From an uncultured bacterium (GTDB lineage Bacteria > Oederibacteriota > PGYV01 > CAWJRG01), in the NCBI GenBank assembly GCA_963845185.1, contig CAWJRG010000009.1, positions 256,001 to 320,000 of the forward strand: DNA of 64,000 bases, given 5' to 3'. The notes beneath the pieces are model-generated. The model was not told the origin of the DNA. It worked only from the letters and a program-made list of their open reading frames with translations, and did not search any database. The first letter of the stretch is position 1; each line of letters begins with the position of its first letter. A program made the translations under genes and the position numbers. This document shows, piece after piece, positions 9,544 to 61,892 of the stretch.

Positions 9544-11154
9544 GTGAACGAATTTTTGCTGAGAATGTGGGAACGGCTTAGGACGTTCTGGTCAGGATTA
9601 AACAATAGCCAAAAAACTATCTGGGTGGCCGTACCGGCACTGGTGCTCTTGGGATTAATAGTATTAGGAGTATGGAGTTCCCAACCAAACTATTCGCCTT
9701 TATATTCAAATTTAAGCAGTGAAGACGCGGGTGTAATATTAAATGATTTGAAAGATAAAAAAATACCTTATAAGGTTACAAACGACGGCAAGGCAATACT
9801 TGTACCTTCAAAATATGTTTATGATACAAGACTTGATCTTGCGGCAAAAGGGCTTCCTAAAGGTGGGACGGTAGGTTTTGAAATTTTCGACAAGACTAAT
9901 CTGGGAGTGACAGACTTCACCCAGAGGGTTAATTATGTAAGGGCGCTTGAAGGCGAATTGAACAGGACTATTTCCAACCTTGATGTAATTGACGAAACAA
10001 GGGTTCATATAGTATTGCCGGAAAAGGAATTATATGAAGAAAAAGAGAAAGAACCTACTGCATCAGTACTTGTAAAATTAAAAGAAGGAATGAAACTTGA
10101 TTTTGGACAAACAAAAGCAATAGTACATCTCGTTTCTTCAAGTGTTGAAGGTCTTAAGCCGATAAATGTAACGATAGTCGATACCAAAGGGGAAGTTTTA
10201 AGTGATCTTATCAGGGACGACCTTCTTGATGAGGACGGGGCAAGCTATTCTTTGTCAAAACAGATTAAACTTACGGATCAGCAGATTTCACTCCAGAAAA
10301 ACATGGAGAAGGATATCCAGGCGCGTGTTGAGTCAATGCTTGTTACCGTGCTTGGCGAGCGCAGGGCAACCGTACGAGTTAAGGCTGAACTTGATTTTAA
10401 CCAGGTTGAGAAAAAAGACGAAGTATATGAGCCGGTAGTTGGAGGAAAGGGGATATTACGCAGCGAGCAGAAAAAATTAGAGAGTTACACAGGGGTTGGG
10501 GTTTATCCGGGCGGGGTGCCGGGCACGGATTCAAACATACCAGGATATAAGTCTGTAGTAAGCGGTAATTCGCAGTATACAAAAGCAGAAAGTACTGATA
10601 ACTATGAAATAACAAAAAAAGAGAATCATACAATTGAAGCGGTTGGAGCGATTAAAAGGCTGTCGGTCGCGGTTATAGTCGACAATCTTCAGCCACAGCA
10701 GGTACAGTCTATTAAAAACGCGGTGATTGCGGCAGCTGGGCTTGACTTGGGGCGTGGGGACCAGGTAGCTGTCGAAAATATATCTTTTGACAGAACAATC
10801 GAAAAGGCAGAACTGTTCCAGACTCAGGTTATGGCAAGAGAAAAATATATGACTACTCTTTTAAGCCTTGGCATAGTACTTGGCATACTTCTTTTTGCTT
10901 TACTTTTCCTCAGGGCGACCCTCAAGCCAAAGGCGATAAGGGAAAAACTTAGGAGGCAGATAGAGCGAGCAGCAAAAGAAGTAAAAGAAGAAGAGGAAGT
11001 CGAGGTGCCATTGGAAGCTGTTCCTTCGGCAGCGGAGCTTGCTGAAGCCCAAAAACGAGCTGAAATGAGAAGACAGGTAACAAAAATTGCCAGAGAAAAT
11101 CCAAAAGTTATTATACAATTGATTAAACGCTGGTTGACAGAAGAAAAGAGGTGA
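9544..11154 (+). CDS. fliF: Flagellar M-ring protein FliF
   Basis: GFEIFD, RALEGEL, RVHIVLP, SSVEGL; two TM segments. Confidence 0.96.
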   Translation: MNEFLLRMWERLRTFWSGLNNSQKTIWVAVPALVLLGLIVLGVWSSQPNYSPLYSNLSSEDAGVILNDLKDKKIPYKVTNDGKAILVPSKYVYDTRLDLAAKGLPKGGTVGFEIFDKTNLGVTDFTQRVNYVRALEGELNRTISNLDVIDETRVHIVLPEKELYEEKEKEPTASVLVKLKEGMKLDFGQTKAIVHLVSSSVEGLKPINVTIVDTKGEVLSDLIRDDLLDEDGASYSLSKQIKLTDQQISLQKNMEKDIQARVESMLVTVLGERRATVRVKAELDFNQVEKKDEVYEPVVGGKGILRSEQKKLESYTGVGVYPGGVPGTDSNIPGYKSVVSGNSQYTKAESTDNYEITKKENHTIEAVGAIKRLSVAVIVDNLQPQQVQSIKNAVIAAAGLDLGRGDQVAVENISFDRTIEKAELFQTQVMAREKYMTTLLSLGIVLGILLFALLFLRATLKPKAIREKLRRQIERAAKEVKEEEEVEVPLEAVPSAAELAEAQKRAEMRRQVTKIARENPKVIIQLIKRWLTEEKR

Positions 11155-11161
11155 GAATATA

Positions 11162-12160
11162 ATGCCACTATCAGGTGAACAAAAAGCAGCAATACTTTTA
11201 ATAACATTAGGACCGGACCTTTCATCAGAAATATTTAAAAATTTGAGTGATGAGATGGTTGAGCAGTTGACACTGCAAATCGCAAACACTAAGAAAGTTC
11301 AGCCCCCGGACAGAGATCAAGTACTTGAGGAAAGTTATCAGCTTGCGCTCGCTGAGGAATATATATCACAAGGCGGTATTGATTATGCAAGAGAGCTTCT
11401 TGAAAAAGCTCTCGGTGAGCAGAAAGCTGTTGAAATATTAAATAGATTGCAGGGCGCATTGCAAATGACGCCTTTTGATTTTATAAAAAGAACGGATCCG
11501 CAGCAGATACTAAATTTTATTCAGAATGAGCATCCGCAGACAATAGCGCTTGTTTTAGCGCATCTAACCGCTGACCATTCGTCCACAATATTATCATCCC
11601 TGCCGCCGGAAGTACAGGTTGATGTTGCCACACGAGTCGCAACAATGGACAGGGCAACGCCTGAGGTAATAATGGAAGTTGAGAAAGTGCTTGAAAGGAG
11701 AATAGCTTCCGTGTTCACCCAGGAATTTGCTTCAGCCGGTGGAGTCAGGGCTATTGCCGAAATATTAAACAGGGTCGACAGGTCAACGGAAAAAGCCATT
11801 ATGGAAAAACTTGAGGAACAGAACCCGGACCTTGCTGATGAAATAAAAAGATTGATGTTTGTGTTCGATGATATTTTGCTACTTGACGACAGGACTATAC
11901 AGCAGATACTGCGTGAAATAGACTCAAAAGACCTTGTTCTTGCGTTAAAGGGCGCTTCCGAAGAGTGCCGCAATAAAATACTAAAGAATATGTCAAGCAG
12001 AGCTCGACAGATGATACTTGAAGATATGGAAGTTATGGGACCGGTGAGACTGAAAACTACCGAAGAAGCTCAGCAGAAGATTGTTAATGTCATAAGGCAA
12101 CTTGAGGAAATGGGAGAAATTGTTGTAGCCCGCGGTGGGGAGGAAGAGATTTTTGTATAA
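11162..12160 (+). CDS. fliG: Flagellar motor switch protein FliG
   Basis: KAAILLITLG, GGIDYA, EHPQTIA, MFVFDDI. Confidence 0.97.
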   Translation: MPLSGEQKAAILLITLGPDLSSEIFKNLSDEMVEQLTLQIANTKKVQPPDRDQVLEESYQLALAEEYISQGGIDYARELLEKALGEQKAVEILNRLQGALQMTPFDFIKRTDPQQILNFIQNEHPQTIALVLAHLTADHSSTILSSLPPEVQVDVATRVATMDRATPEVIMEVEKVLERRIASVFTQEFASAGGVRAIAEILNRVDRSTEKAIMEKLEEQNPDLADEIKRLMFVFDDILLLDDRTIQQILREIDSKDLVLALKGASEECRNKILKNMSSRARQMILEDMEVMGPVRLKTTEEAQQKIVNVIRQLEEMGEIVVARGGEEEIFV

Positions 12161-12960
12161 AAATCTTTATAAACCTGAAGATTATAATATAAAAAATTCC
12201 CCGTACAAGTTACGGGGAGTTTTTCTTTCAAAACGTGATATCCTGAAAGAAGAAGTCAAAAAAAAAGCAGAGAATGTTGAAGAGAAGCTTGAACAGATTG
12301 AAGATACTATAAAAAAACTCGAGGCAGTTATTAAGGAAAAACAACAGGAGCTGAAGGCAACTGACGAAAAGTGTACGCAAATGCTAATAGATACTGAAGA
12401 AGAAATTAAACATAAAATTCAAACGGCAGAAAAAGGAATCGGAAAAATTAAAAGAAGAAAAGAGCAAGCAGGGCTATGAAGAAGGCTTTGGAAAAGGTTA
12501 TAATGAAGGGCTGGATAAAGCGAAAAATGAAGTTGAGCAAAAATATTCAAACCTTATTAATACTTTGACGGGCATAGTTGATTCCTCGCTGAAAGAAAAG
12601 CATAAAATAATTTCAAATACCGAAGAAGAAATAATAAATTTATCAATTGATATTTCAAAAAAGATAGTGCAGGAGGAGTTGAAAATAAATCGAGATGTAA
12701 TTATTAACCTTGTGAAAGAGGCAATAAAAAAACTTGAAGATAAAGAAAAAATAGTTATATATTGCAATCCCGACGATATAGAACTAATTAAGGGGCACAG
12801 GGAAGAGTTTATAAGGCTTGTTGATAATCCAGACATTCTACATATATTGCCTGATGATTTTATTGACAAGGGGGAATGTAGGCTGGAAACGAGAAATGAA
12901 ATTATCGATACGGATATTGCCTACCAGTTTGAGGAAATAAAGAAAAATCTTTCCAAATAA
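12135..12960 (+). CDS. fliH: Flagellar assembly protein FliH, split by an apparent 1-bp insertion in the A5 run at 12430-12434
   Basis: Removing one A gives AEKESEKLKEEKSKQGYEEGFGKGYNEG (GxxxG repeats), continuing into ORF 12565-12960; lies between fliG and fliI. Confidence 0.85.
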
Positions 12961-14300: not shown

Positions 14301-14756
14301 ATGAAGAAATTTCAATTTAAATTTGAAACCGTCCTTAGGGTAAAAGGAAAAAAAGAAGAGGAGCTTAAAAAGGAATTGTTGAAATTAATAGCTTTGAAAA
14401 CCGAACAAGAGATGATGCTTAATAAAATTACCGCAGAAAGACAGAGGGCGGGGAAAGAAAAAGTTGAAAAAAACATGGAGACATCAAATATTCTAACTTT
14501 TATTTATTATGAAAATTATATCAATGCGCTAAGGGAGCAGATAAAGAACACTGAAAAAATGATTAAAGATTTTGAAAATCGCGCCGATGTTAAAAGAGTA
14601 GAAGTAATTGAGGCCAGTAAAGAAAAAAAGATATTTGAAAGGTTAAAAGACAAACATTATGAAAGTTTTAAAAAACTTGTCATACAAAATGAGCAGAAAG
14701 TGCTTGATGAAATAGCTATAGGCAAGTTCAATAGGAAAGAGCAAAGAAGCATATAA
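14301..14756 (+). CDS. fliJ: Flagellar export protein FliJ
   Basis: MKKFQFKFETVL...EQKVLDE pattern; follows fliI. Confidence 0.9.
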   Translation: MKKFQFKFETVLRVKGKKEEELKKELLKLIALKTEQEMMLNKITAERQRAGKEKVEKNMETSNILTFIYYENYINALREQIKNTEKMIKDFENRADVKRVEVIEASKEKKIFERLKDKHYESFKKLVIQNEQKVLDEIAIGKFNRKEQRSI

Positions 14757-14863
14757 ATAGTATAAAAATATGGAAATGGGCATTGAATATGCATGTTTTA
14801 ATATAGAAACAAAAGTCTAATAAAAGGAACGAATTAGCAGAATCAAAAAGGCTAAAAAAGTAC

Positions 14864-14892
14864 TTGACAAGTAAAGTTTAATTAAGTATAAT
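14864..14892 (+). promoter_or_regulatory. Consensus sigma70 promoter of the fliK-flgD-flgE unit
   Basis: Perfect TTGACA-17bp-TATAAT. Confidence 0.85.
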
Positions 14893-14930
14893 TTTAATAG
14901 AAGTAAAGGTAAAGTAGGTTAGTGAGATTT

Positions 14931-14994
14931 GCCAGCAAAATATGCCCGGACCGCAAGGGGGGCAAGCTGGCGCCGAGTAAAGTGGAAGGAGGCG
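14931..14994 (+). promoter_or_regulatory. Putative structured 5' leader RNA of fliK
   Basis: GC-rich nested hairpin GCCAGC..TGCCC[GGA]CC-GCAA-GG[G]GGGCA..GCTGGC in an AT-rich region, then CGCC..GGCG overlapping the RBS. Confidence 0.55.
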
Positions 14995-15000
14995 AGTTTT

Positions 15001-17337
15001 GTGGATATTGTAAGTGCTGCCGGCGCGGTTAATAATAATATTTTATTATTAATTCAAAATAATACGTTTATAAAAAACTCACAATTACCTTCCAATTTTA
15101 AAGAAATTATTTCTTGTTTATTCAATGAAAATCAAGGTTCAACAACAGATAAAGTAATTTTGGGGAATCAGATAATAAACAACGACAAATTAAAAGATGC
15201 TGTTTATAAAACAACAGCATTTTTTTATTTAATGGGGAATATAGGAAATATTGCCAGTCAAAATATTGCAAGTCTTGAGAATAACACAACAATTCAGGGC
15301 ATCGCTGATAGTTATGGTTTTACTCCAAACGAAAGATCAATTTTTGTGAATGGCCTTAAGACAGCAGCAATGGAAATAGCAACAAATAACACCGGATCGG
15401 ATGTTCAAACTGAAAATCAAGTTATCTCCGGCGCTATACAAAATATAAAAAACAGCATGGTTGTGAATTCGTCTTCTGTTCCAAATACACAGACTGCAAT
15501 TGCTAATGGGCAAAACGCGAACATTGCCGCAGGCACCCAACAAGAGATAAAAAGTCAAAATATAATTTCGGGGTTGAAAGATTTAAGCGCTTCATTGGGG
15601 AAAACGGCAGAAATTATTACAAAGTCAGGTAATATAGATAAAGATCAGATGCAAAAAATAAATATTGGGCTTGCTGACTTAGAAGATAAAATAAACAATG
15701 TTGTTTCAAAAGATTTAAATACTAATACAAACAATCAAATCAAGGAAGTTCAAAATACCGTAAAAAATATTATGGCCTCAATAAACACAACAAAAATTTC
15801 TTCCAATGTGCCAGTATCAAATGCTGTTGATGCAGATGGAGACTTAAATAATATAGTTGCAGTTCAGCCGAAAGCCGTTCCTGCGGTTTTATCTGTATCA
15901 AATAATGTTGCTGCCGATGGGGACGTAAATAATAAGACAACTGTGGCACAGCAAAAAGTTGTGCCTGCAGTTTTAACCGTATCAAACACTGTTTCTGCTG
16001 ATGAGGTAGTAAATAATAAGACGGTTGTGGCACAGCCAAAAGCCATGCCTGTAGTTTTAAATATTCCAAATAATGTTGTTATTGATGGAGATGTAAATAA
16101 CAACACAGATGCAACACAACCAAAAACCATGCCTACAATTTCAGGGGCATTAAATACTGTTGCTGCAGATGGGAACGTTAATGACAAGACAATTATAGTA
16201 CTATCCAATGTTACGCCTCCAGTTTTTACTACATCGAAAATTCCTTCTGCTAAAGAAGACAATATCATTAATGTTATTAAATCTGATGCGGGTTCGTCGG
16301 ATACGACAAATGATAACAATAATGTTTATAACCAGGAAAAAGGCGACAACAATGATTTGATAAATAAAATTTCCACGCTACTTGACAAATTAAACGGAAA
16401 AATAGAAATTGTGAGCAAACCAGGATATGTATTTACCGCAAAACTGGGAACGCTAGAAAATACGCAAAAGACAAATTTTGATGCACAAACACTTGCAAAC
16501 AATAATCAAGGAACTATTAATAATATAAAAAATACAATTAAGGAAGGGCAAGCAGAAACATTGCAGATTGATAATATAAAAGAGGAAGGCGCAGTTCTTC
16601 CTCAAATAGCTATTAATACTTCCGTTAATCTAAAGGCAACTACTGTAGAAGAATCGCAAGTGAAGACAAATGCGGCAGGTAGCCTTGATTATAATAAAGA
16701 AAATTTTGGCGATAATACAGGGAATAAAGTAAATGTTGTGGCAAAGGAACTGCTTGGTAAAAATGAAGATTACAAATATAATATTGAAAATAAATCCAGC
16801 AATGACATGAACTGGGTATTAAGCAATGTTGCAGCAATTGCGCAGAACACAACAATGACGCAGAATACAGAGCAGATTTTCCCGTCTGTTGCTGATTTTG
16901 CCGTAGATACCAAAAAAGATATAATAATAAAGCAGATTGTTGACGGCATCAATAATGTTAAGGACAGTATGCAGTTTGTGCCAAAAACCGAAATTAAAAT
17001 GGTTTTGAGACCGGAAAATCTTGGGCCGGTTATTGTAAGTATGGAACATAAAAACGGTATTTTGAAGGGTACAATACAGGTTGCGGATTCAGGAGTCAGA
17101 AATGTTCTGAAGGCAAATCTGGCTGACCTTAAGGGAGCTTTAAACAATATCGGGGTTCATACTCAGGATATAGACGTAGCTTTAAATCAAAATCTAAATA
17201 ATGGTTCACAATTTGAACAGGGCCAGAGCTATTATAAGGAATGGGAAGGCGCGGCTTTAAATAACAATAAAACAAACATTCCCATAGAGACTGCTATACC
17301 TTATTTTTGGGGCAGCAGCCTTAACTACTTGGCTTAA
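15001..17337 (+). CDS. fliK: Flagellar hook-length control protein FliK (778 aa from GTG)
   Basis: C-terminal LRPENLGPV..LKGAL T3S4 domain; long low-complexity N-terminus; precedes flgD; AGGAGG RBS before GTG at 15001. Confidence 0.88.
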   Translation: MDIVSAAGAVNNNILLLIQNNTFIKNSQLPSNFKEIISCLFNENQGSTTDKVILGNQIINNDKLKDAVYKTTAFFYLMGNIGNIASQNIASLENNTTIQGIADSYGFTPNERSIFVNGLKTAAMEIATNNTGSDVQTENQVISGAIQNIKNSMVVNSSSVPNTQTAIANGQNANIAAGTQQEIKSQNIISGLKDLSASLGKTAEIITKSGNIDKDQMQKINIGLADLEDKINNVVSKDLNTNTNNQIKEVQNTVKNIMASINTTKISSNVPVSNAVDADGDLNNIVAVQPKAVPAVLSVSNNVAADGDVNNKTTVAQQKVVPAVLTVSNTVSADEVVNNKTVVAQPKAMPVVLNIPNNVVIDGDVNNNTDATQPKTMPTISGALNTVAADGNVNDKTIIVLSNVTPPVFTTSKIPSAKEDNIINVIKSDAGSSDTTNDNNNVYNQEKGDNNDLINKISTLLDKLNGKIEIVSKPGYVFTAKLGTLENTQKTNFDAQTLANNNQGTINNIKNTIKEGQAETLQIDNIKEEGAVLPQIAINTSVNLKATTVEESQVKTNAAGSLDYNKENFGDNTGNKVNVVAKELLGKNEDYKYNIENKSSNDMNWVLSNVAAIAQNTTMTQNTEQIFPSVADFAVDTKKDIIIKQIVDGINNVKDSMQFVPKTEIKMVLRPENLGPVIVSMEHKNGILKGTIQVADSGVRNVLKANLADLKGALNNIGVHTQDIDVALNQNLNNGSQFEQGQSYYKEWEGAALNNNKTNIPIETAIPYFWGSSLNYLA
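15817..16233 (+). repeat. Five degenerate 81-84-bp (27-28 aa) tandem repeats within fliK
   Basis: Units starting SNAVDADGD, SNNVAADGD, SNTVSADEV, PNNVVIDGD, LNTVAADGN. Confidence 0.85.
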
Positions 17338-17360
17338 AAAAGAAAGGAGGTGAGTAAATT

Positions 17361-17831
17361 ATGTCAACTTCAGGCGTATCAGGTGCCAGCAATGGGTTTA
17401 CCTACAGCAACGCGTTTACATCTACGGTAAACAACCCAAATGGCGTGTTAAATGAAAGCTCTTTTTTACAGATGCTTTTGACCCAGCTCAAGGATCAGGA
17501 TCCCCTTGATGTACAGGATAGCAGCCAGTTTGCGAGCGACTTAGCGCAGTATTCTTCGCTTGCCGGGATAGACTCCCTTAATTCAACGACGTCCACGGAT
17601 ATGTCATCGATGAATGATACTATGACGGCGCTGTTGCTTATGGAAAACACGACGCAGGCAGCTTCTCTTATCGGCAAGACGGTCACTATCTCGATCAAGG
17701 ATTCGAGTGGGAACCAGACAGGCACGGTATCAGGGGCAGTAACTTCGGTTAAGTTTGAAAACGGCCAGCCGGAGATCATTGTTAACGGCACAGAGTATGG
17801 AATAGCAAGTGTAACAGAAATTTCGTCCTAA
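17361..17831 (+). CDS. flgD: Flagellar hook-capping protein FlgD
   Basis: FLQMLLTQLKDQDPL, LAQYSSL, SLIGKTV. Confidence 0.93.
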   Translation: MSTSGVSGASNGFTYSNAFTSTVNNPNGVLNESSFLQMLLTQLKDQDPLDVQDSSQFASDLAQYSSLAGIDSLNSTTSTDMSSMNDTMTALLLMENTTQAASLIGKTVTISIKDSSGNQTGTVSGAVTSVKFENGQPEIIVNGTEYGIASVTEISS

Positions 17832-17847
17832 AGGTGGTGATTCTTTT

Positions 17848-18249
17848 ATGACGCTTGATAAAATTAACACACAGTTACAAAATCTTTCACAGATACAGGA
17901 AGCGCAGAGAAAACAGCAGCAGAATGCTGCAAACACGGCGGACATAGAAGCACCATCCTTTAAGGACGTACTGAAACAGCAGTTGTCGGACAAGGGAGAA
18001 ATAAAGTTTTCCGCGCACGCAGAGAAAAGGCTGCAGTCAAGGAACATTCCGATCACGCCGGAACTGATGCAGCGGCTGCAGGATGCGGTAAGCAAGGTAA
18101 GGGAAAAAGGCGGCAAGGAAAGCCTGCTTGTTTTTGACAAGTTCTCGCTTATCGTAAGCGTGAAGAACAATACGGTTATCACCGCTATTGACAATGAAGG
18201 GATGAAAGACAATGTTTTTACGAATATTGACAGCGCTGCTTTCGCGTAA
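17848..18249 (+). CDS. Flagellar operon protein (TIGR02530-type)
   Basis: IKFSAHAEKRLQSRNI, KESL, IVSVKNNTVITA, NVFTNIDSA; located between flgD and flgE. Confidence 0.9.
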   Translation: MTLDKINTQLQNLSQIQEAQRKQQQNAANTADIEAPSFKDVLKQQLSDKGEIKFSAHAEKRLQSRNIPITPELMQRLQDAVSKVREKGGKESLLVFDKFSLIVSVKNNTVITAIDNEGMKDNVFTNIDSAAFA

Positions 18250-18261
18250 TGTCAATCAAAA

Positions 18262-18327
18262 GAGGCTGGACTTCTTTGGCCGCAGGGCTGAAGAAGGAGC
18301 CTCCAGAACCGCGTTGAATATGCGGTT
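18262..18327 (+). promoter_or_regulatory. Putative structured leader RNA of flgE
   Basis: GAGGCT[GGA]CTTCTTTGGCC-GCAG-GGCTGAAGAAG[G]AGCCTC hairpin, then AACCGC..GCGGTT hairpin before the RBS. Confidence 0.6.
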
Positions 18328-18352
18328 AACAAAATAAGGAGGTACACGTACC

Positions 18353-20296
18353 ATGATGTCTTCACTTTTTTCAGCAATATCAGGTTTACAAACCCACAAT
18401 GACTGGATGACGGTAATAGCAAACAACATCGCAAACGTTGACACTACTGCTTATAAGTCACAGAGGATAACGTTCAGGGACCAGATTTACCAGTCGCTTG
18501 GGTCGGCTTCAGGAGCAAATGAGCTAGAAAATCTCGGAGGAGTGAACCCTGAGGAACTCGGGCTCGGGGATGTTGTCGGCAGCATTGACACGCTAATGAC
18601 GCAGGGCGCTTTACAGACAACAGGGAACTCGCTTGACGTAGCCATAACAGGCAGCGGATTTTTTACCGTAAAGTCGGGCAATACTGTCGCATACACAAGG
18701 GCAGGCAATTTTGGCCAGGATGACCTTGGAAATGTTGTGACATCTTCAGGCGCAATTTTGCAGGGATGGGAAGGCACTTTTACAAGAACGACATCGGCAG
18801 GACCACAACAAACAGGCAGCCCAAACCCTCTTGCCCAGGTAATATCAGATACTTATGAGGTTAATTCCACTGACCCTTCAAAAATAGGAAATATCAATAT
18901 TCCAACCGACCTTGAAATGGCTGCTCAGATGACCAGCAAGATAGATTTTGCAGGAAATCTTGACGCAGAAACTCCGGTAAATGCAGCATGCTATGTCCCT
19001 ATTGTTGGTGGGCTTGTTGTAGCGAACAATGTAGCAACGGCTTTGCCTTCAAATTACGCGCCCGACCAATTGCCTGCAGCCGGTCAAGTTGTATCAATTG
19101 ACCAGGTTGATCAGGGGCTTACCCCAGTTACAGCTACTGCATGGCCACCTGTTGCGGCCAACACGAACTGCGCATATTTTCACGTGGGAGGCGCTGTGGG
19201 AGCAGCCATGGTGACGCCTGACGCGCAGACTACAATTACATGCTATGACTCGCTCGGAAATAAAAGAAGCATAACAGTATGGTATTTCCAGCACGGTGTC
19301 AATACTGACCCTGCTGCGCCTGCTGATGCCAGGCCTGTATGGGACTGGTATGCTTTTGATACAACCTATGTAGCGGGAAGTGCGAAATACACAGGCACGC
19401 CTGATTATTTTAACTGCATAGGAGGAACAAATATTCAAAGCGCGCCAGTGAATCCATTAACCAATGCGGTTGATACCAATTACAACACAGCTCCTGCGAC
19501 TTTTACTATTGATCCTGGAGATGTTTACTCACCAATTTGGTTCAACAATGACGGCTCCCTTGCGTCAAACGGCGGGACATGGCAATTTGCAGGCGCGGCA
19601 GGATTAAACGGCCGACAGGCACAGCCAACTTTGAATCTTGTCCAAAATCCGAGCGCATCGCAGGGATTAATGCCTGACGGCGCAATATCAATTCAGCAGA
19701 TTACAGCTAATTTTGGAACGGGAAATATTTGGCAAGGAGGAGCCGGACTACCGGATACCTTGAACGTAAATAACCCGATAGCTCCTTTTAATTCGCAGGT
19801 TGCAGTAGGTACTGCCAATGCGCTTGGCCAGAGGGACGGGCTGGTAGGAGATGTCATGGGCTCATTCCAGAATATAAACGGAGTGCAGACATATGTACCT
19901 GATTCAACTGCTTACGCGAAAGACCAGAACGGTTTTGGAGCAGGTACGCTTACCGGACTTTCTGTTGGCACAGACGGCACGGTTAACGGCCAGTTTTCAA
20001 ACCAGCAGACAATCGGCCTGGCAAAGATATCTCTTGCTGTGTTTGCCAACCCGGAGGGATTGCAGAAAGAGGGAAATTCGCTTTACAGCACAACATCAAA
20101 TTCCGGTGTTGCTAGAATGGTAACTGCGGCAAACGCAGGAGCAACATTAACAGGCGGAGCGCTTGAAGCTTCAAACGTAGATTTGTCTACCGAGCTCACA
20201 AATATGATAGTTGCGCAGGCGGGATTTAACGCCAATGCAAGGATAGTAACGGTTGACTCAGATATGCTTACGACTCTGACGCAACTTGGAAGATAA
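18353..20296 (+). CDS. flgE: Flagellar hook protein FlgE with large inserted domains
   Basis: NNIANVDT, YTRAGNF, GNLD, YDSLG, LEASNVDLSTEL. Confidence 0.95.
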   Translation: MMSSLFSAISGLQTHNDWMTVIANNIANVDTTAYKSQRITFRDQIYQSLGSASGANELENLGGVNPEELGLGDVVGSIDTLMTQGALQTTGNSLDVAITGSGFFTVKSGNTVAYTRAGNFGQDDLGNVVTSSGAILQGWEGTFTRTTSAGPQQTGSPNPLAQVISDTYEVNSTDPSKIGNINIPTDLEMAAQMTSKIDFAGNLDAETPVNAACYVPIVGGLVVANNVATALPSNYAPDQLPAAGQVVSIDQVDQGLTPVTATAWPPVAANTNCAYFHVGGAVGAAMVTPDAQTTITCYDSLGNKRSITVWYFQHGVNTDPAAPADARPVWDWYAFDTTYVAGSAKYTGTPDYFNCIGGTNIQSAPVNPLTNAVDTNYNTAPATFTIDPGDVYSPIWFNNDGSLASNGGTWQFAGAAGLNGRQAQPTLNLVQNPSASQGLMPDGAISIQQITANFGTGNIWQGGAGLPDTLNVNNPIAPFNSQVAVGTANALGQRDGLVGDVMGSFQNINGVQTYVPDSTAYAKDQNGFGAGTLTGLSVGTDGTVNGQFSNQQTIGLAKISLAVFANPEGLQKEGNSLYSTTSNSGVARMVTAANAGATLTGGALEASNVDLSTELTNMIVAQAGFNANARIVTVDSDMLTTLTQLGR

Positions 20297-20312: not shown

Positions 20313-20349
20313 AAAGAGGGCGGGATTTTTCCCGCCCTCTTTTATTTTC
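20313..20349 (+). terminator. Intrinsic terminator after flgE
   Basis: AAAGAGGGCGGGA-TTTT-TCCCGCCCTCTTT followed by a T-rich tract. Confidence 0.9.
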
Positions 20350-20564: not shown

Positions 20565-20593
20565 TTGACAAGAGATTTCAAAAATTGTAGAAT
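20565..20593 (+). promoter_or_regulatory. sigma70-type promoter of the flbD-mot-fli-flh operon
   Basis: TTGACA-17bp-TAGAAT. Confidence 0.75.
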
Positions 20594-37383: not shown

Positions 37384-40017
37384 ATGGAGATAATGGGCAT
37401 ACAAGGAAATCTATTACAACTTTTTGCATCAGCGGATAAAAAAGTTGAAGATTTTCTGTTGTCTTTGAAACAAGGAGATATATTAAAAGGAAAGGTACTT
37501 GAAATATTTGCAAATGATAACCGTGCCTTAATTAATTTTAAAGGATATAATGTAGTATCACAGTTACCTCAAACCAACCTGATACAAAAAGGGGATATTA
37601 TAAACGTTGTTGTAAGTCAGATGGGTGATAAAGTACTAATGAAACTCATAAATGAAAGTACGGCTGGAATTTCTACAACACCGCAGGATTTAAATGGTGA
37701 ATCAGGTATAACTGGAAAACAATTATTATCTTTTTTGGAGTCAATCCAAGTACCTGTAAATGAGCAAAATGTTTTTATTGCTCAACGGATGATTGATTAT
37801 CAAGTACCTATAACAAAAGAAAATCTTAATTCAATAAATATGGCACTAGCAAGATATGTAACAAATAACAGCGTTTATGAAACGCAGAATCCATTATCTA
37901 AAAAGCAGGAAATCCTGCTTGCTTTGATTTCGGCTGCTAAACAAAGCGGAAGTATCACAAATAGTGAAGAAGCAAATAATGTTAGTTCAAACAAACAAAA
38001 TGAAGTCAGTACAAATAACAACGGCAATAATATGCCTAACATATTTAATAAAATAAATTCAGATGAGATTTCATTGAGCGCAGCCAGCGGGAATCTTATT
38101 TTGAATTTAAAAAATATCGACGATAATTTTATTAAAAATTTAATTTTTCAGGCGGTTACAGATAATATTATAACACAAAGCGAAGGTGAAAATTTAGTCA
38201 ATACACTTACTGCAACTGGATCTGCAAATTTATCCGATATTCAGTTTACAACAGGAACGTCAGGTCTGCAGCATACATTTAATACAGCATTGACTGAAAA
38301 TACTATCCCTATACCCGCAGTAAATAAAAATATCAATGAAGCTGAGTTTGTAACAAATAAAACGGCTATTGAGGAAAATACGAACATTATACAAGCAAAT
38401 CTTGATAATACGATAATCAACAAACAACCGCCAAACATTACAGAAATTAACACTGCAAACAATAAATTGATAATAGAAAACGACATAACATTATTGCAAA
38501 GAAATCCTTCTGCTTTTACAACAAATAGACCAACGGCAAATATAGCAGATATGCAGATTGTAAGAGATAAAGCAAGTTTACAGTTTATTTTTAGCAATAA
38601 TAGTAAAATTACAAACAATTCGGTTATTATGACCAGTAATGAAAAAGAACTTGTTTCGCAAATACAAAGTGATTTTGATAATATTGAAAATAACATGCAC
38701 TTATTTAATAATACAAATATAAAGGAAATGCTGCCGATTTTGAATAGATTAAATGAAGAGATAAACACTTTGAGTAATAAACTTTCAGTCTTAACTAATT
38801 CAACCAATTATACTGAGGACATTAATAAAGTCTCAACAATGATTAATAAAAATATAATTGACATTCAAAACGGATCTGCTTCATCAGAGTCGGGCAAGAT
38901 AAAGCAGTTTATTACAGATTTTATAAATTTTACAAGAAATACAACGCTGTTTAAAACACTTTCCAATACAAATATTAGCTTACAAAGCATTAAAGATGGC
39001 GCACAGCAATATGCGCAATCGAGTGTTGACATAGAATCAGCAATTGAGTCACTAGTATTTCTGAAATCAAGAAACATTCCTATTGAAAACGATAAATTTA
39101 TAGATACTATGGCAAAATATTTCAGAGACGATATGAAATTAAATCAAGGGCTTGAAAAAATTAATGATCTTATAAATAAATTTAATAATTTAGGTAAAAC
39201 GCCAAACGACGAATTTACAAATAATATTAATAAGATTAATGATGCAATTAAAAACCTAATAAATGAAGCATCAATTAAACTTCAAGACGACAATTTAAAG
39301 CAAGAAAATGTTACGCAACAAATAAGAAATTTTATTGATAAAAGCGGGCTTAATATTGAAAACAAATTAAAAGAAGCTTTATTAAATATATCCGGAAACG
39401 AAGAAAAACCCGGCGATATAAGAAATACATTTTCTCCCGATACCAAAGAAAACCTAAAATCTATGCTTATTAAACTTTTAGACGAGCTCAACAATACGAA
39501 TGACCAAAAACAGCTTTCCGTGCCACAAAAAGACACACTTAACCAGATAAAAGATGCATCAACCAATATACTAAATAACATGAATGCCATTCAGCTTATT
39601 AATCAAAAACCGGCAGCTTTTGATATGATTTATACTCAGATACCTATATTTTCCGGTAGTAGGTTATTTAATGGTGAAATTCAGGTGTGGTACAGGAAGG
39701 GCAGCATAAAAGAAAATTTTAAAAATTCATCCGCACCTGTAAATATAGTATTCCTTCTTAATACCTCGGGATTGGGAAATGTAAAAATATCTCTAAACAT
39801 ATTAAAAAATGATGTCCAATGTTCTATTAAAACTGAAAGCGAAAAAGCAAAACAGGTATTGTCCGGAGGGAAAAATAATTTTATTGATAACCTTAAAGAC
39901 ATTAATTTCAATGTAAAAGGTTTTAATATTAATATTGATAAAGACGACAAAGCAGAAATAAAACCGCTATCCAATGATAATTATATTCAGAGCGGAATGA
40001 TAAATTTTAAGGCATAA
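37384..40017 (+). CDS. Second FliK-like protein (YlqG-like)
   Basis: Asn-rich 877 aa; C-terminal FLLNTSGLGNVKI FliK_C-like domain; directly upstream of a stand-alone FlhB-C gene. Confidence 0.7.
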   Translation: MEIMGIQGNLLQLFASADKKVEDFLLSLKQGDILKGKVLEIFANDNRALINFKGYNVVSQLPQTNLIQKGDIINVVVSQMGDKVLMKLINESTAGISTTPQDLNGESGITGKQLLSFLESIQVPVNEQNVFIAQRMIDYQVPITKENLNSINMALARYVTNNSVYETQNPLSKKQEILLALISAAKQSGSITNSEEANNVSSNKQNEVSTNNNGNNMPNIFNKINSDEISLSAASGNLILNLKNIDDNFIKNLIFQAVTDNIITQSEGENLVNTLTATGSANLSDIQFTTGTSGLQHTFNTALTENTIPIPAVNKNINEAEFVTNKTAIEENTNIIQANLDNTIINKQPPNITEINTANNKLIIENDITLLQRNPSAFTTNRPTANIADMQIVRDKASLQFIFSNNSKITNNSVIMTSNEKELVSQIQSDFDNIENNMHLFNNTNIKEMLPILNRLNEEINTLSNKLSVLTNSTNYTEDINKVSTMINKNIIDIQNGSASSESGKIKQFITDFINFTRNTTLFKTLSNTNISLQSIKDGAQQYAQSSVDIESAIESLVFLKSRNIPIENDKFIDTMAKYFRDDMKLNQGLEKINDLINKFNNLGKTPNDEFTNNINKINDAIKNLINEASIKLQDDNLKQENVTQQIRNFIDKSGLNIENKLKEALLNISGNEEKPGDIRNTFSPDTKENLKSMLIKLLDELNNTNDQKQLSVPQKDTLNQIKDASTNILNNMNAIQLINQKPAAFDMIYTQIPIFSGSRLFNGEIQVWYRKGSIKENFKNSSAPVNIVFLLNTSGLGNVKISLNILKNDVQCSIKTESEKAKQVLSGGKNNFIDNLKDINFNVKGFNINIDKDDKAEIKPLSNDNYIQSGMINFKA

Positions 40018-40029
40018 GGCAACAGTTCC

Positions 40030-40320
40030 ATGGCAATTATAAAACCCAGAAAACAAAAAAAATCGGCAATAGCACTTCATTATGAAAAAGAAACCCAGGA
40101 TGCACCCCAGATTGTGGCAAAAGGCAAAGGCGCAATAGCGGAAAAAATAATAGCCTTGGCAAAAGAACACAATATACCATTATATGAGGATCCTGATTTA
40201 ATAGAAGTACTTTCAAAACTCGACCTTGGGCAGGAAATTCCTCCGGAAATGTACAAATTAATAGCTGAAGTGCTTATATACGTTTATAAAGCCAACAACA
40301 AAGTAAGCAAGATAATATAA
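40030..40320 (+). CDS. Stand-alone FlhB C-terminal (EscU/YscU switch, YlqH-like) protein
   Basis: AIALHY...APQIVAKGKG..AEKII..A...IP...IPPEMYKLIAEVL. Confidence 0.92.
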   Translation: MAIIKPRKQKKSAIALHYEKETQDAPQIVAKGKGAIAEKIIALAKEHNIPLYEDPDLIEVLSKLDLGQEIPPEMYKLIAEVLIYVYKANNKVSKII

Positions 40321-60252: not shown

Positions 60253-61892
60253 AAAAGGGCTAAAAGTATTATATAATAAGGTAAATAAAAGTTTTTGAGC
60301 TGTAAAAAGGAGGACACCTAATGGGTGAAGCGAAAAAACACTGTTTTAAATTCAGTTTTACTGACAAAGTAAAAGCATATTTTAAGGGTTCTGAAATTAC
60401 GTCGGACGGTGGATTAATTGCTATTCGAGAACTTGATGAAAAAATGGGTCTGACTATTTTGGCTGAAAAACACCTGACTGATAAAAGAAACGGAAGAAAT
60501 ATTCAACATGACTTAACCGAACTTTTACGACAATCCATATATAGCCGTTTGGCGGGCTACGAAGATGTAAATGATGCCAAGCAACTAAGGAACGACCCTT
60601 CTTTAAGGGCAGTACTTGGTGACCGGGCATTACAGAGAAATGGCAGCAGTGAGGCCACTGTTGGAAAATTCGAAACAGAAATACTCACCGAAGGAAATAA
60701 CCTGGAAAAACTCGATGAGATGTTAATGAATTGGATAGGCAAAGCGGATAAGATTAGGGGCGTTAAAAAAATAGTGCTTGATTTGGATTCGTCCGAAAGC
60801 CCGGTATATGGTGAACAGGAAGGAAGCGCTTATAACGGTTATTTCGGATCAAAATGTTATCACCCCCTTTTCTGTTTCAATCAATTTGGAGATTGTCTTA
60901 AGGCAAAATTAAGACCGGGTAATGTCCATAGCGCCGATGCGTGGTTGGAGTTTATCGAACCCGTTTTAAGAAATTATATCAGCAAAGGGTTTAAAGTCAC
61001 CTTCCGTGCAGACGCGGCTTTTGGGATACCGGAATTATATGAACTCTGCGAAGAACTTGGCGTAGAATACGTCATTAGGCTAAGAGAGAATAATTGCCTT
61101 GCAGAAGAGATATCCGGCTTACTGAAAAAGCCCGTCAAAAAAACCGACAAAAAGTTCATCACGCTGTATAAAGATTTTATGTATCGAGCCAAGTCGTGGA
61201 ATAAAAAAAGAAGAGTGATTGCAAAAATAGAATATCACCATGGCGAATTGTTTCCGCGGGTGGGATTTATTATAACAAGTTTAAACTGGCTCGATAAAAA
61301 AGCAGTAAAATTTTATAACAAACGTGGTACTTGCGAACAATGGATCAAGGAGGGAAAACACACGCTGAATTGGACGAAGCTATCCTGCAAGAGATTTAAG
61401 GAGAATGAAGCGAGATTGAAATTATTTATTTTGGCATATAATTCAGGAAATTTCTTACGGACCTGGTTTTACCAAAGAAGATAAAACACTGGTCGTTAAA
61501 AACGATACAGTTAAAGTTGATAAAAATAGGTGGCAGATTAATAAAACATGCCAGGTATTACTGGTTGTTATTGGCCGAGGTTTCTATTACAGCAAAGATA
61601 TTTTCCGGTTTAATGCATAATATTCGGAAATTACGCCCGGCAAGCGGCTGATAGAATTGGCTTGGTAACATGTAACATATTTATAGAGGAGCAAACAAAA
61701 ATGATTGGACAGGCTTGTCTAAAAATATGGAATTGGGAAAGATTAGACCGAAAAATCGGGTAATCGGTATAGTTTGGAGGAAAATATTTCATTGAACCAA
61801 CAGAATAAAAACATTTCTCTTGATTTTGACATCATTTGGAGTAAAATTAATGATGAAAATAGGCTGGTTGATTTTGATATGACGGATACCAG
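60216..61892 (+). mobile_element. IS1380-family insertion sequence
   Basis: Imperfect terminal inverted repeats CCCGCATCCGTTATATCAAATTCA / TGATTTTGATATGACGGATACCAG around an IS1380-type transposase. Confidence 0.88.
60321..61651 (+). CDS. IS1380-family DDE transposase (1-bp frameshift near 61460; C-terminus continues to 61651)
   Basis: ITSDGGL, GYED.ND, LDLDS, RADAAF, FYNKRGTCEQWIKE; shifted frame LPKKIKHWSLKTIQLKLIKIGGRLIKHARY. Confidence 0.9.

Follow-up and report, generated by a model that had tools for sequence, protein, structure and literature searches.

A conserved two-hairpin RNA motif in the leaders of flagellar hook and rod genes, with an additional copy before fliK in one class of the Oederibacteriota

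The expression of flagellar hook genes is considered here for one stretch of DNA, 64,000 nucleotides (nt) long, from an uncultured bacterium of the phylum Oederibacteriota (contig CAWJRG010000009.1, positions 256,001 to 320,000), which we call the window. In this window the gene of the hook-length ruler, fliK, and the gene of the hook subunit, flgE, are each preceded by a hairpin with a bulged GGA. Comparison with related and distant genomes shows that both hairpins represent a single conserved cis-acting RNA motif, apparently undescribed, that is found in the leaders of hook and rod genes. The motif has two modules. In hairpin A, as deduced from the aligned copies, a G+C-rich outer stem is followed by a covarying Y-R pair; next come a bulged GGA that faces a single purine, an invariant C-G pair and finally an inner stem-loop that is free to vary in length and sequence. 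Hairpin B, according to the same alignments, has a covarying stem and a loop of the YGAWU type, or of 12 nt in a Clostridia-type phylum. The original prediction, made from the window alone, had seen the two hairpins as a candidate RNA-level control of hook assembly. As it now stands, the observation is far broader: the leader motif is conserved, this class has an extra copy of it before fliK, and a concrete candidate for a partner can be named, the TIGR02530 protein encoded directly upstream of flgE. The ancestral site was presumably the flgE leader, directly after the TIGR02530 gene, and from there copies would have been recruited in front of fliK in the class of this bacterium and, in some Clostridia-type genomes, in front of flgG.

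As predicted, both copies belong to one transcription unit, fliK-flgD-TIGR02530-flgE, for which a scan finds the promoter and the terminator. The features of the unit are as follows; MFE stands for minimum free energy, SD for Shine-Dalgarno sequence and ORF for open reading frame.

14864..14892, + strand: sigma-70-type promoter of the fliK-flgD-TIGR02530-flgE unit, TTGACA-17-TATAAT, 12/12 consensus (scan)
14931..14971, + strand: fliK-leader element, basal stem 14931-14936/14966-14971 around hairpin A (local MFE structure)
14943..14964, + strand: hairpin A, fliK copy, UGCC-C-[GGA]-CC-GCAA-GG-[G]-G-GGCA
14986..15003, + strand: fliK SD AAGGAGG (14986-14992) and GTG start (15001), in the frame of ORF 14929-17337, with a Flg_hook domain
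15001..17337, + strand: fliK, hook-length ruler (PF02120, E 3.8e-12)
17361..17831, + strand: flgD, hook cap (PF03963 and PF13861)
17848..18249, + strand: TIGR02530/PF12611 "flagellar operon protein", candidate RNA partner (TIGR02530 at 112.6 bits versus a cut-off of 83.2)
18262..18303, + strand: hairpin A, flgE copy, GAGGC-U-[GGA]-11-bp stem-GCAG loop-[G]-A-GCCUC
18307..18327, + strand: hairpin B, flgE copy, 8-bp stem and UGAAU loop (fold; the stem covaries)
18336..18355, + strand: flgE SD AAGGAGG (18336-18342) and ATG start (18353) (ORF list)
18353..20296, + strand: flgE, hook subunit (PF06429, PF22692, PF00460, PF07559)
20313..20342, + strand: intrinsic terminator closing the unit, 13-bp stem with 8 G-C pairs and a T-run

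The sequences of both hairpins are as the original prediction had given them, TGCCC-GGA-CC-GCAA-GG-G-GGGCA at 14943-14964 in the fliK leader and GAGGCT-GGA-CTTCTTTGGCC-GCAG-GGCTGAAGAAG-G-AGCCTC at 18262-18303 in the flgE leader. The MFE structure of the flgE leader is exactly hairpin A plus the second hairpin at 18307-18327 (z -5.05, none of 200 shuffles as good), and a local fold of 73 nt reaches z -6.05. Hairpin B of this leader ends 8 nt upstream of the ribosome-binding site and does not lie over it; the original prediction had placed it beside or over that site. For the fliK leader, the MFE structure of 112 nt lacks hairpin A (z -1.03), and when the SD is included an alternative MFE structure pairs the 5' strand of hairpin A with the SD region. 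Folded locally (44 nt), this leader has hairpin A inside the basal stem at -19.8 kcal/mol (z -1.99; 9 of 200 shuffles reach this energy). Neither hairpin is followed by a T-run and the terminator scan lists none there, unlike what an intrinsic terminator or attenuator would have. The bare shape alone would be a weak finding, because loosely defined GGA-bulged hairpins number 320 in this genome. If a strict core is required instead, with a C, the Y-R pair, GGA opposite R (purine), the C-G pair and both stems, 7 Mb (both strands) contain 11 instances, the two flagellar copies included, or about 3e-4 per 250-nt leader. Eight of the other nine instances lie within an ORF of at least 100 amino acids (aa) on either strand, and one just 3' of an ORF. 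One hairpin with the same core, GUCC-GGA-CCUU-GGAAA-AAGG-A-GGAC (G000:C10:694752, L223:4753-4777), is without flagellar context and probably a chance occurrence. A 106-aa ORF that belongs to no known family ends 20 nt before it, a terminator follows, and a pair of extracytoplasmic function (ECF) sigma and anti-sigma genes lies beside it.

The copy before flgE is conserved in the own class and is also found in other classes of the phylum, which is represented by 99 genomes, among them 24 species genomes of the bacterium's own class (identical with its order); its own genome is 99.4% complete. In all 14 relatives first compared, the spacer between the TIGR02530 gene and flgE measures 102-154 nt, and each of these spacers has GGC-Y-GGAC ... 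G-R-R-GCC around an inner stem of varying sequence and length, with a second hairpin downstream whose loop is, for example, UGAAU, CGAAU or CUAAU. RNAalifold analysis of the flgE leaders reveals compensatory changes in 13 of 17 pairs, and the pair count in alignment A2 is 87.7% versus 76.3% in shuffles, a value that none of 500 shuffles reaches. A covariance model built from the flgE leaders of the relatives (R1) finds a single copy in the own genome, namely the flgE leader of the window (62.4 bits, E 1.2e-24), the next match having 16.4 bits. Within the class, R1 recovers the flgE copy in 22 of 24 genomes at 38-73 bits, and the two misses are genomes that are 61% and 83% complete. Weaker copies are found in other classes of the phylum, where the arrangement TIGR02530-[A,B]-flgE was confirmed in seven of eight loci examined. 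In the model alignment A4 (29 sequences), 91% of the cells are paired, double changes occur in 12 of 16 pairs and the covariation score is higher than that of any of 500 shuffles or any slid control; all three modelled pairs of hairpin B covary. The weaker R1 matches in class genomes (26 bits or less) are regarded as noise, since none of 11 inspected has a flagellar neighbour; eight of them lie inside long ORFs, two overlap smaller ORFs and one overlaps none.

The copy before fliK belongs to the class. Read directly, the fliJ-fliK spacers of the relatives contain GGCC-Y-GGA-CC-GCAA-GG-R-R-GGCC almost unchanged, and the corresponding 20-nt core is present in 20 of 24 class genomes, with no match of a reversed-pattern control, and once in the own genome. 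The same pattern is found in none of the 75 genomes from other classes of the phylum (one control match), and the one fliK leader inspected in another class (G036) has no copy; in one other class that was checked, fliK follows the preceding gene without a leader. The core is single-copy in each class genome with one exception, G021. Here a second, slightly diverged copy with a GUAA instead of a GCAA loop (G021:C26:46824; L177/L218) stands before a second fliK-like gene at a contig end, which could be a duplication or the assembly of two strains. The window also contains a second FliK-like gene (37384-40320; 877 aa with a C-terminal Flg_hook domain), and its leader is without hairpin A. A scan of a wider set of contigs with the 20-nt pattern says little about its range, because chance matches in genomes of high G+C content dominate; at least 120 loci match, and among the 120 listed only 6 have flagellar neighbours.

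The relatives' fliK leaders are also alike in their layout. A promoter of the form TTGACA-17-TATAmT follows fliJ and precedes the leader in 19 of 20 sequences, the exception being the second copy of G021, and hairpin A is located 50-100 nt downstream of this promoter. Basal stems analogous to that of the window, but of other sequence, are present in G008, G012, G011, G004, G018 and G016. Hairpin A is invariant except for the Y-R pair (UG 9, CG 7, UA 5). Hairpin B, with a CGAUU, CGAAU or UGAUU loop, lies between the promoter and hairpin A in 17 of 20 fliK leaders and is absent from those of the window, G008 and G012; all five of its pairs covary. The order of the modules is B-A before fliK and A-B before flgE. 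The loop of hairpin B of flgE recurs in a weak hairpin at 14780-14792 in the window, GCAU-UGAAU-AUGC. This weak hairpin is located upstream of the fliK promoter and folds no better than chance (-3.2 kcal/mol, z 0). A pseudoknot between the loop of hairpin B and fliK codons 2-4 was also considered and rejected, as the class fliK leaders have no covariation there.

The two leaders have in common the internal loop together with the pairs that close it, a companion hairpin and the transcription unit. The proposal that they carry the same motif is borne out by these features and by conservation at orthologous sites. The original prediction had based it on an identical GGA/G loop and a CC-GCAR-GG apex; the loop is indeed common, but the apex is a coincidence for flgE, where it differs among the relatives, CC-GCAA-GG being invariant only in fliK leaders. 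Its functional suggestion, a control of the ratio of FliK to FlgE, is not the general function, because the fliK copy occurs only in this class and the far more widespread flgE copy is accompanied elsewhere by one before flgG; within the class it could hold.

The motif is also present in a Clostridia-type phylum. Sampling outside the own phylum was centred on G099, an uncultured Lachnospiraceae bacterium found via the scan with the fliK-type pattern. TIGR02530 is present in 40 of 61 sampled genomes of its order, and 31 loci with TIGR02530 and flgE were compared, 29 from this order and two from another metagenome-assembled genome, G101. In 30 of these 31 loci Y-GGA-C follows within about 90 nt of the TIGR02530 stop codon, and the remaining one has GGG for GGA. 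In 25 loci hairpin A begins at or overlaps the stop codon of TIGR02530 (UAG-C-Y-GGA-CC ... GG-R-R-G-CUA); the hairpin was checked by folding in 23 of the 31 loci. Hairpin B follows hairpin A after 0-2 nt and has a 12-nt loop, YGAAUGAYNGAN. Covariation is found for 11 of 14 pairs in this set, including seven of seven in hairpin B. R1, which was trained on the own phylum only, gives 13 matches at E<=1 in 30 outside loci, ten of them at the right spacer, the best at 19.1 bits.

A covariance model of this outside form (R3) matches 79 of 151 genomes drawn evenly from the Clostridia-type phylum at a threshold of E<=0.001. Among the best 30 R3 loci, 28 lie between TIGR02530 and flgE, one has TIGR02530 at a contig end and one is flanked by flgF and flgG. 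Of eleven second copies inspected, four are in a further TIGR02530-flgE locus, five between two FlgE/FlgG-type genes and two without a flagellar neighbour. The location between flgF and flgG was confirmed for the five loci checked, L285 from the best 30 and the second copies L288, L290, L292 and L295. For two R3 matches, L286 (42.6 bits) and L293 (29.8 bits), there is no flagellar gene at a distance of up to about 2 kb. On loci of the own phylum R3 reaches only 11.7-17.6 bits at flgE leaders, and the flgE leader of the window is unmatched. The likeness across phyla and across genes is apparent by eye and from common invariants and is picked up by the models only weakly. The conservation across phyla and the covariation for which the original prediction had proposed to look are there: the stems covary strongly and the flgE copy is kept in at least two phyla. 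The motif is also no generic repeat, with one flgE-type and one fliK-type copy in the genome.

The motif does not correspond to a described RNA family, as had been suspected. Rfam 15 gives no match at the gathering threshold in the 64-kb window, none on either leader (14700-18400) at E<=10 and none in 18 loci outside the phylum at E<=1. In the literature searched, which covered few subscription journals, we found no published flgE or fliK leader motif of this kind, nor a description of it under TIGR02530 or PF12611. Termite-flg (RF01729) and flg-Rhizobiales (RF01736) are orphan cis-regulatory RNAs upstream of flagellar genes that were identified by comparative genomics (Weinberg et al. 2010, PMC2864571). 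Like the motif described here, both precede flagellar genes and have no established mechanism. However, Termite-flg, at about 105 nt, has several stems, and the seed sequences given in the supplement do not contain a GGC-Y-GGAC hairpin (PMC2864571). Models of both families have no match in the window leaders (E<=10) or in the 18 outside loci (E<=1).

Kink-turns of the L7Ae type have a 3-nt bulge followed by tandem sheared G.A/A.G pairs. This structure can be ruled out, as the bulge is followed here by an invariant C-G Watson-Crick pair and faces a single purine. In Salmonella, flgE is reportedly subject to post-transcriptional control (Lee and Hughes 2006, J Bacteriol 188:3308), so that there, too, the hook-protein gene would be a target at this level. 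However, organism and gene order differ, a TIGR02530 gene is missing and no common RNA element is known. The TIGR02530 profile has no match in the 14 control genomes.

The most probable reading in our view, with an even chance of being correct, is that the motif is an operator to which a protein binds and through which early-export axial genes are controlled at the level of translation and/or mRNA fate. We favour it because the unpaired nucleotides and the closing pairs are invariant, the stems vary freely and the motif has spread to functionally related genes. A trans-acting protein would recognise the motif in the leaders of hook, distal rod and ruler genes and control translation and/or the fate of their mRNA. 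The output of the axial genes would thereby be uncoupled from that of neighbouring low-copy genes and possibly be tied to the state of assembly. That a protein binds, which protein this would be and in which direction it would act are points that we infer from the pattern of conservation.

The best candidate for such a protein would be TIGR02530 itself, encoded beside the flgE copy. The family, TIGR02530/PF12611, is listed as "function unknown" in a survey of 2026 (PMC13277936). In the outside sample, 78 of 79 motif-positive genomes have the gene, and of the FlhA-positive genomes 77 of 104 with TIGR02530 carry the motif versus one of 18 without (Fisher p = 3.6e-8, kinship uncorrected). The AlphaFold2 model of the protein has residues 50-133 at a predicted local distance difference test (pLDDT) score of about 85-90 and a beta-alpha-alpha-beta-beta-beta core, which weakly resembles RelE/ParE (BECR-fold) toxins. 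Using VIA-align, the best 14 matches of the model are all toxins of the RelE/ParE superfamily (Z 4.7-6.7, root mean square deviation of about 3 A over 65-76 residues). Unlike these toxins, the TIGR02530 gene has no antitoxin context and is a fixed member of flagellar operons. A conserved stretch, FSxHAxxRLxxRxI, leads to a sub-threshold match to DUF4258, which is catalogued with the BECR-fold families, its function being unknown (PMC11980606). DUF4258 was not found in the own genome, a search of the ESM Atlas with residues 46-133 returned no usable match and a profile search of PDB sequences with alignment A3 nothing relevant. Co-occurrence and the weak RelE/ParE-like fold of the model suggest TIGR02530 as the best partner, if tentatively, and this is clearly less probable than an operator as such. 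More speculative, A and B may together be the operator of a widespread flagellar checkpoint, in which TIGR02530, as a domesticated RNA-binding or RNA-cleaving protein of the RelE/ParE fold, would tune or gate hook and rod synthesis via the flgE, flgG and fliK leaders.

Several points weigh against an operator of this kind and against TIGR02530 as its partner. R1 at the fliK leader of the window is at noise level (6.2 bits, E 8). R2, a model of hairpin A only that was built from flgE leaders, detects a single site in the own genome (45.3 bits, the next at 18.1 bits), but gives the fliK copies only 10-17 bits and none at E<=10 genome-wide, because the outer stems of the two leaders differ by a flipped G-C pair. 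As a significant model match is missing, calling the two leaders the same motif depends on the internal loop, on hairpin B and on context. The distance of the motif to the SD varies as well, being 3-25 nt in fliK leaders and, over an A-rich linker, at least about 30 nt in flgE leaders, so that there is no uniform geometry for occlusion of the SD. The co-occurrence with TIGR02530 may merely reflect the location of the motif in the spacer after this gene. Moreover, the flgG copies are not next to TIGR02530, and 27 of 105 TIGR02530-positive genomes have no R3 match at E<=0.001. Finally, Z values of 4.7-6.7 are in the range that VIA-align calls common, the best Foldseek match has an E of 0.13, and DUF4258 matches at only E 0.2 (12.4 bits versus a cut-off of 25) and over residues 54-69 only, as an N-terminal match. 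It is detected in 5 of 16 TIGR02530 members, with a best E of 0.098.

Among the alternatives, the one that fares best, though clearly less probable than an operator, is an element of RNA processing or stability. An endonuclease site or a protective structure would raise the abundance of the flgE (flgG, fliK) segment, and a dedicated regulator would not be needed. The flgE copy is found at a gene junction in the operon where a high-copy subunit follows low-copy genes, its structure is very stable (z -5 to -6) and outside the phylum hairpin A and the stop codon of the preceding gene overlap. The neighbouring TIGR02530 protein, given the weakly RNase-toxin-like fold of its model, could even be the processing enzyme. 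However, a generic stabiliser would not require an invariant GGA/R loop and fixed closing pairs across phyla, and the fliK copy, 50-100 nt from its own promoter, is neither at a junction nor at a 5' end.

We regard it as unlikely that the motif is a targeting signal, which would tag mRNAs of early (rod/hook-type) substrates for localised or export-coupled translation at the type III export gate. All three classes of carrier genes, flgE, flgG and fliK, encode early export substrates, and a conserved flagellar protein as the partner would agree with the conservation of the motif across phyla. However, the other early substrates encoded in the window, flgB, flgC, fliE and flgD, have no copy according to R1 searches of window and genome. 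Slightly less likely again is a ligand sensor or tertiary RNA, similar to a small riboswitch, in which the loop of hairpin B would dock on the internal loop of hairpin A. Two modules with conserved unpaired nucleotides and covarying stems would suit such an architecture, as would their occurrence in either order. Against it stand the absence of hairpin B from three of 20 fliK leaders including that of the window, a linker between A and B that ranges from 0 to more than 15 nt, and a lack of covariation between the loops, of an expression platform such as a terminator and of uniform pairing with the SD.

Sites of CsrA/RsmA typically present the GGA in the apical loop of a short hairpin, with a consensus of the A(N)GGA type, and flagellin leaders bound by these proteins are hag of B. 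subtilis and flaA of C. jejuni, as part of the CsrA-FliW network. Here, too, a flagellar leader has a GGA in a hairpin upstream of a GGA-containing SD, and CsrA is known to repress by binding GGA motifs (PMC4894983). However, in all aligned copies the GGA forms a 3-nt bulge between two helices, a 3x1 internal loop with an invariant C-G pair and a Y-R pair at its ends, and is not apical, and the genes are those of hook, rod and ruler instead of flagellin. A six-frame search with PF02599, which detects the positive controls E. coli, B. subtilis and T. maritima, finds no csrA in the own genome nor in 20 of the 24 class genomes. It is present in four of 24 class genomes and in 13 of 99 phylum genomes. 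CsrA, which the original prediction had named for binding tests, is thus ruled out as the common partner, and as a reading of the motif it is very improbable and ranks below the ligand sensor. Least of all could chance resemblance or a dispersed repeat explain the data, frequent as loose GGA-bulged hairpins are in this genome: only one flgE-type copy is detected by either R1 or R2, there is one instance of the fliK-type core and there are 11 of the strict core in 7 Mb, and both copies are kept at orthologous sites across families, so that the comparative data refute this explanation.

In large fla operons, about a hundred hook subunits are needed beside a handful of copies of the neighbouring gene products. 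To our knowledge, post-transcriptional control is well worked out for flagellin (CsrA-FliW, FlbT) and hardly for the hook. A short and sharply defined RNA element that is kept across phyla offers a testable handle on the supply of hook subunits and is a candidate for a new Rfam family. For TIGR02530/PF12611, a fixed member of many flagellar operons, it gives a first functional lead. If the checkpoint reading is true, it would assign a function to TIGR02530, and about half of the sampled Clostridia-type genomes would have a protein-RNA regulatory pair that is new.

The fliK-flgE unit is part of a large flagellar cluster in the window, in which Pfam searches identify flgB, flgC, fliE, fliF, fliG, fliH, fliI and fliJ (ending at 14756) before fliK. 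After fliK the order is flgD, the TIGR02530/PF12611 gene and flgE, then flbD, motA, motB, fliL to fliR and flhB, followed by flhA, flhF, a MinD-like gene, a PilZ gene, a sigma factor and FapA. Near-perfect sigma-70-type promoters are also found at 11134-11163 (12/12, just before fliG) and at 20565-20593 (11/12, before flbD); given such internal promoters, the cluster may be divided into several transcription units. FliH is apparently split into a coiled-coil ORF of 114 aa (12135-12479) and an ORF of 131 aa with the FliH domain (12565-12960), with 85 nt between them. A 96-aa ORF that follows the second FliK-like gene matches only the C-terminal part of FlhB (PF01312 positions 261-335). Near the end of the window, at 60321-61484, a DDE transposase gene is located (PF13701, E 3.5e-111).

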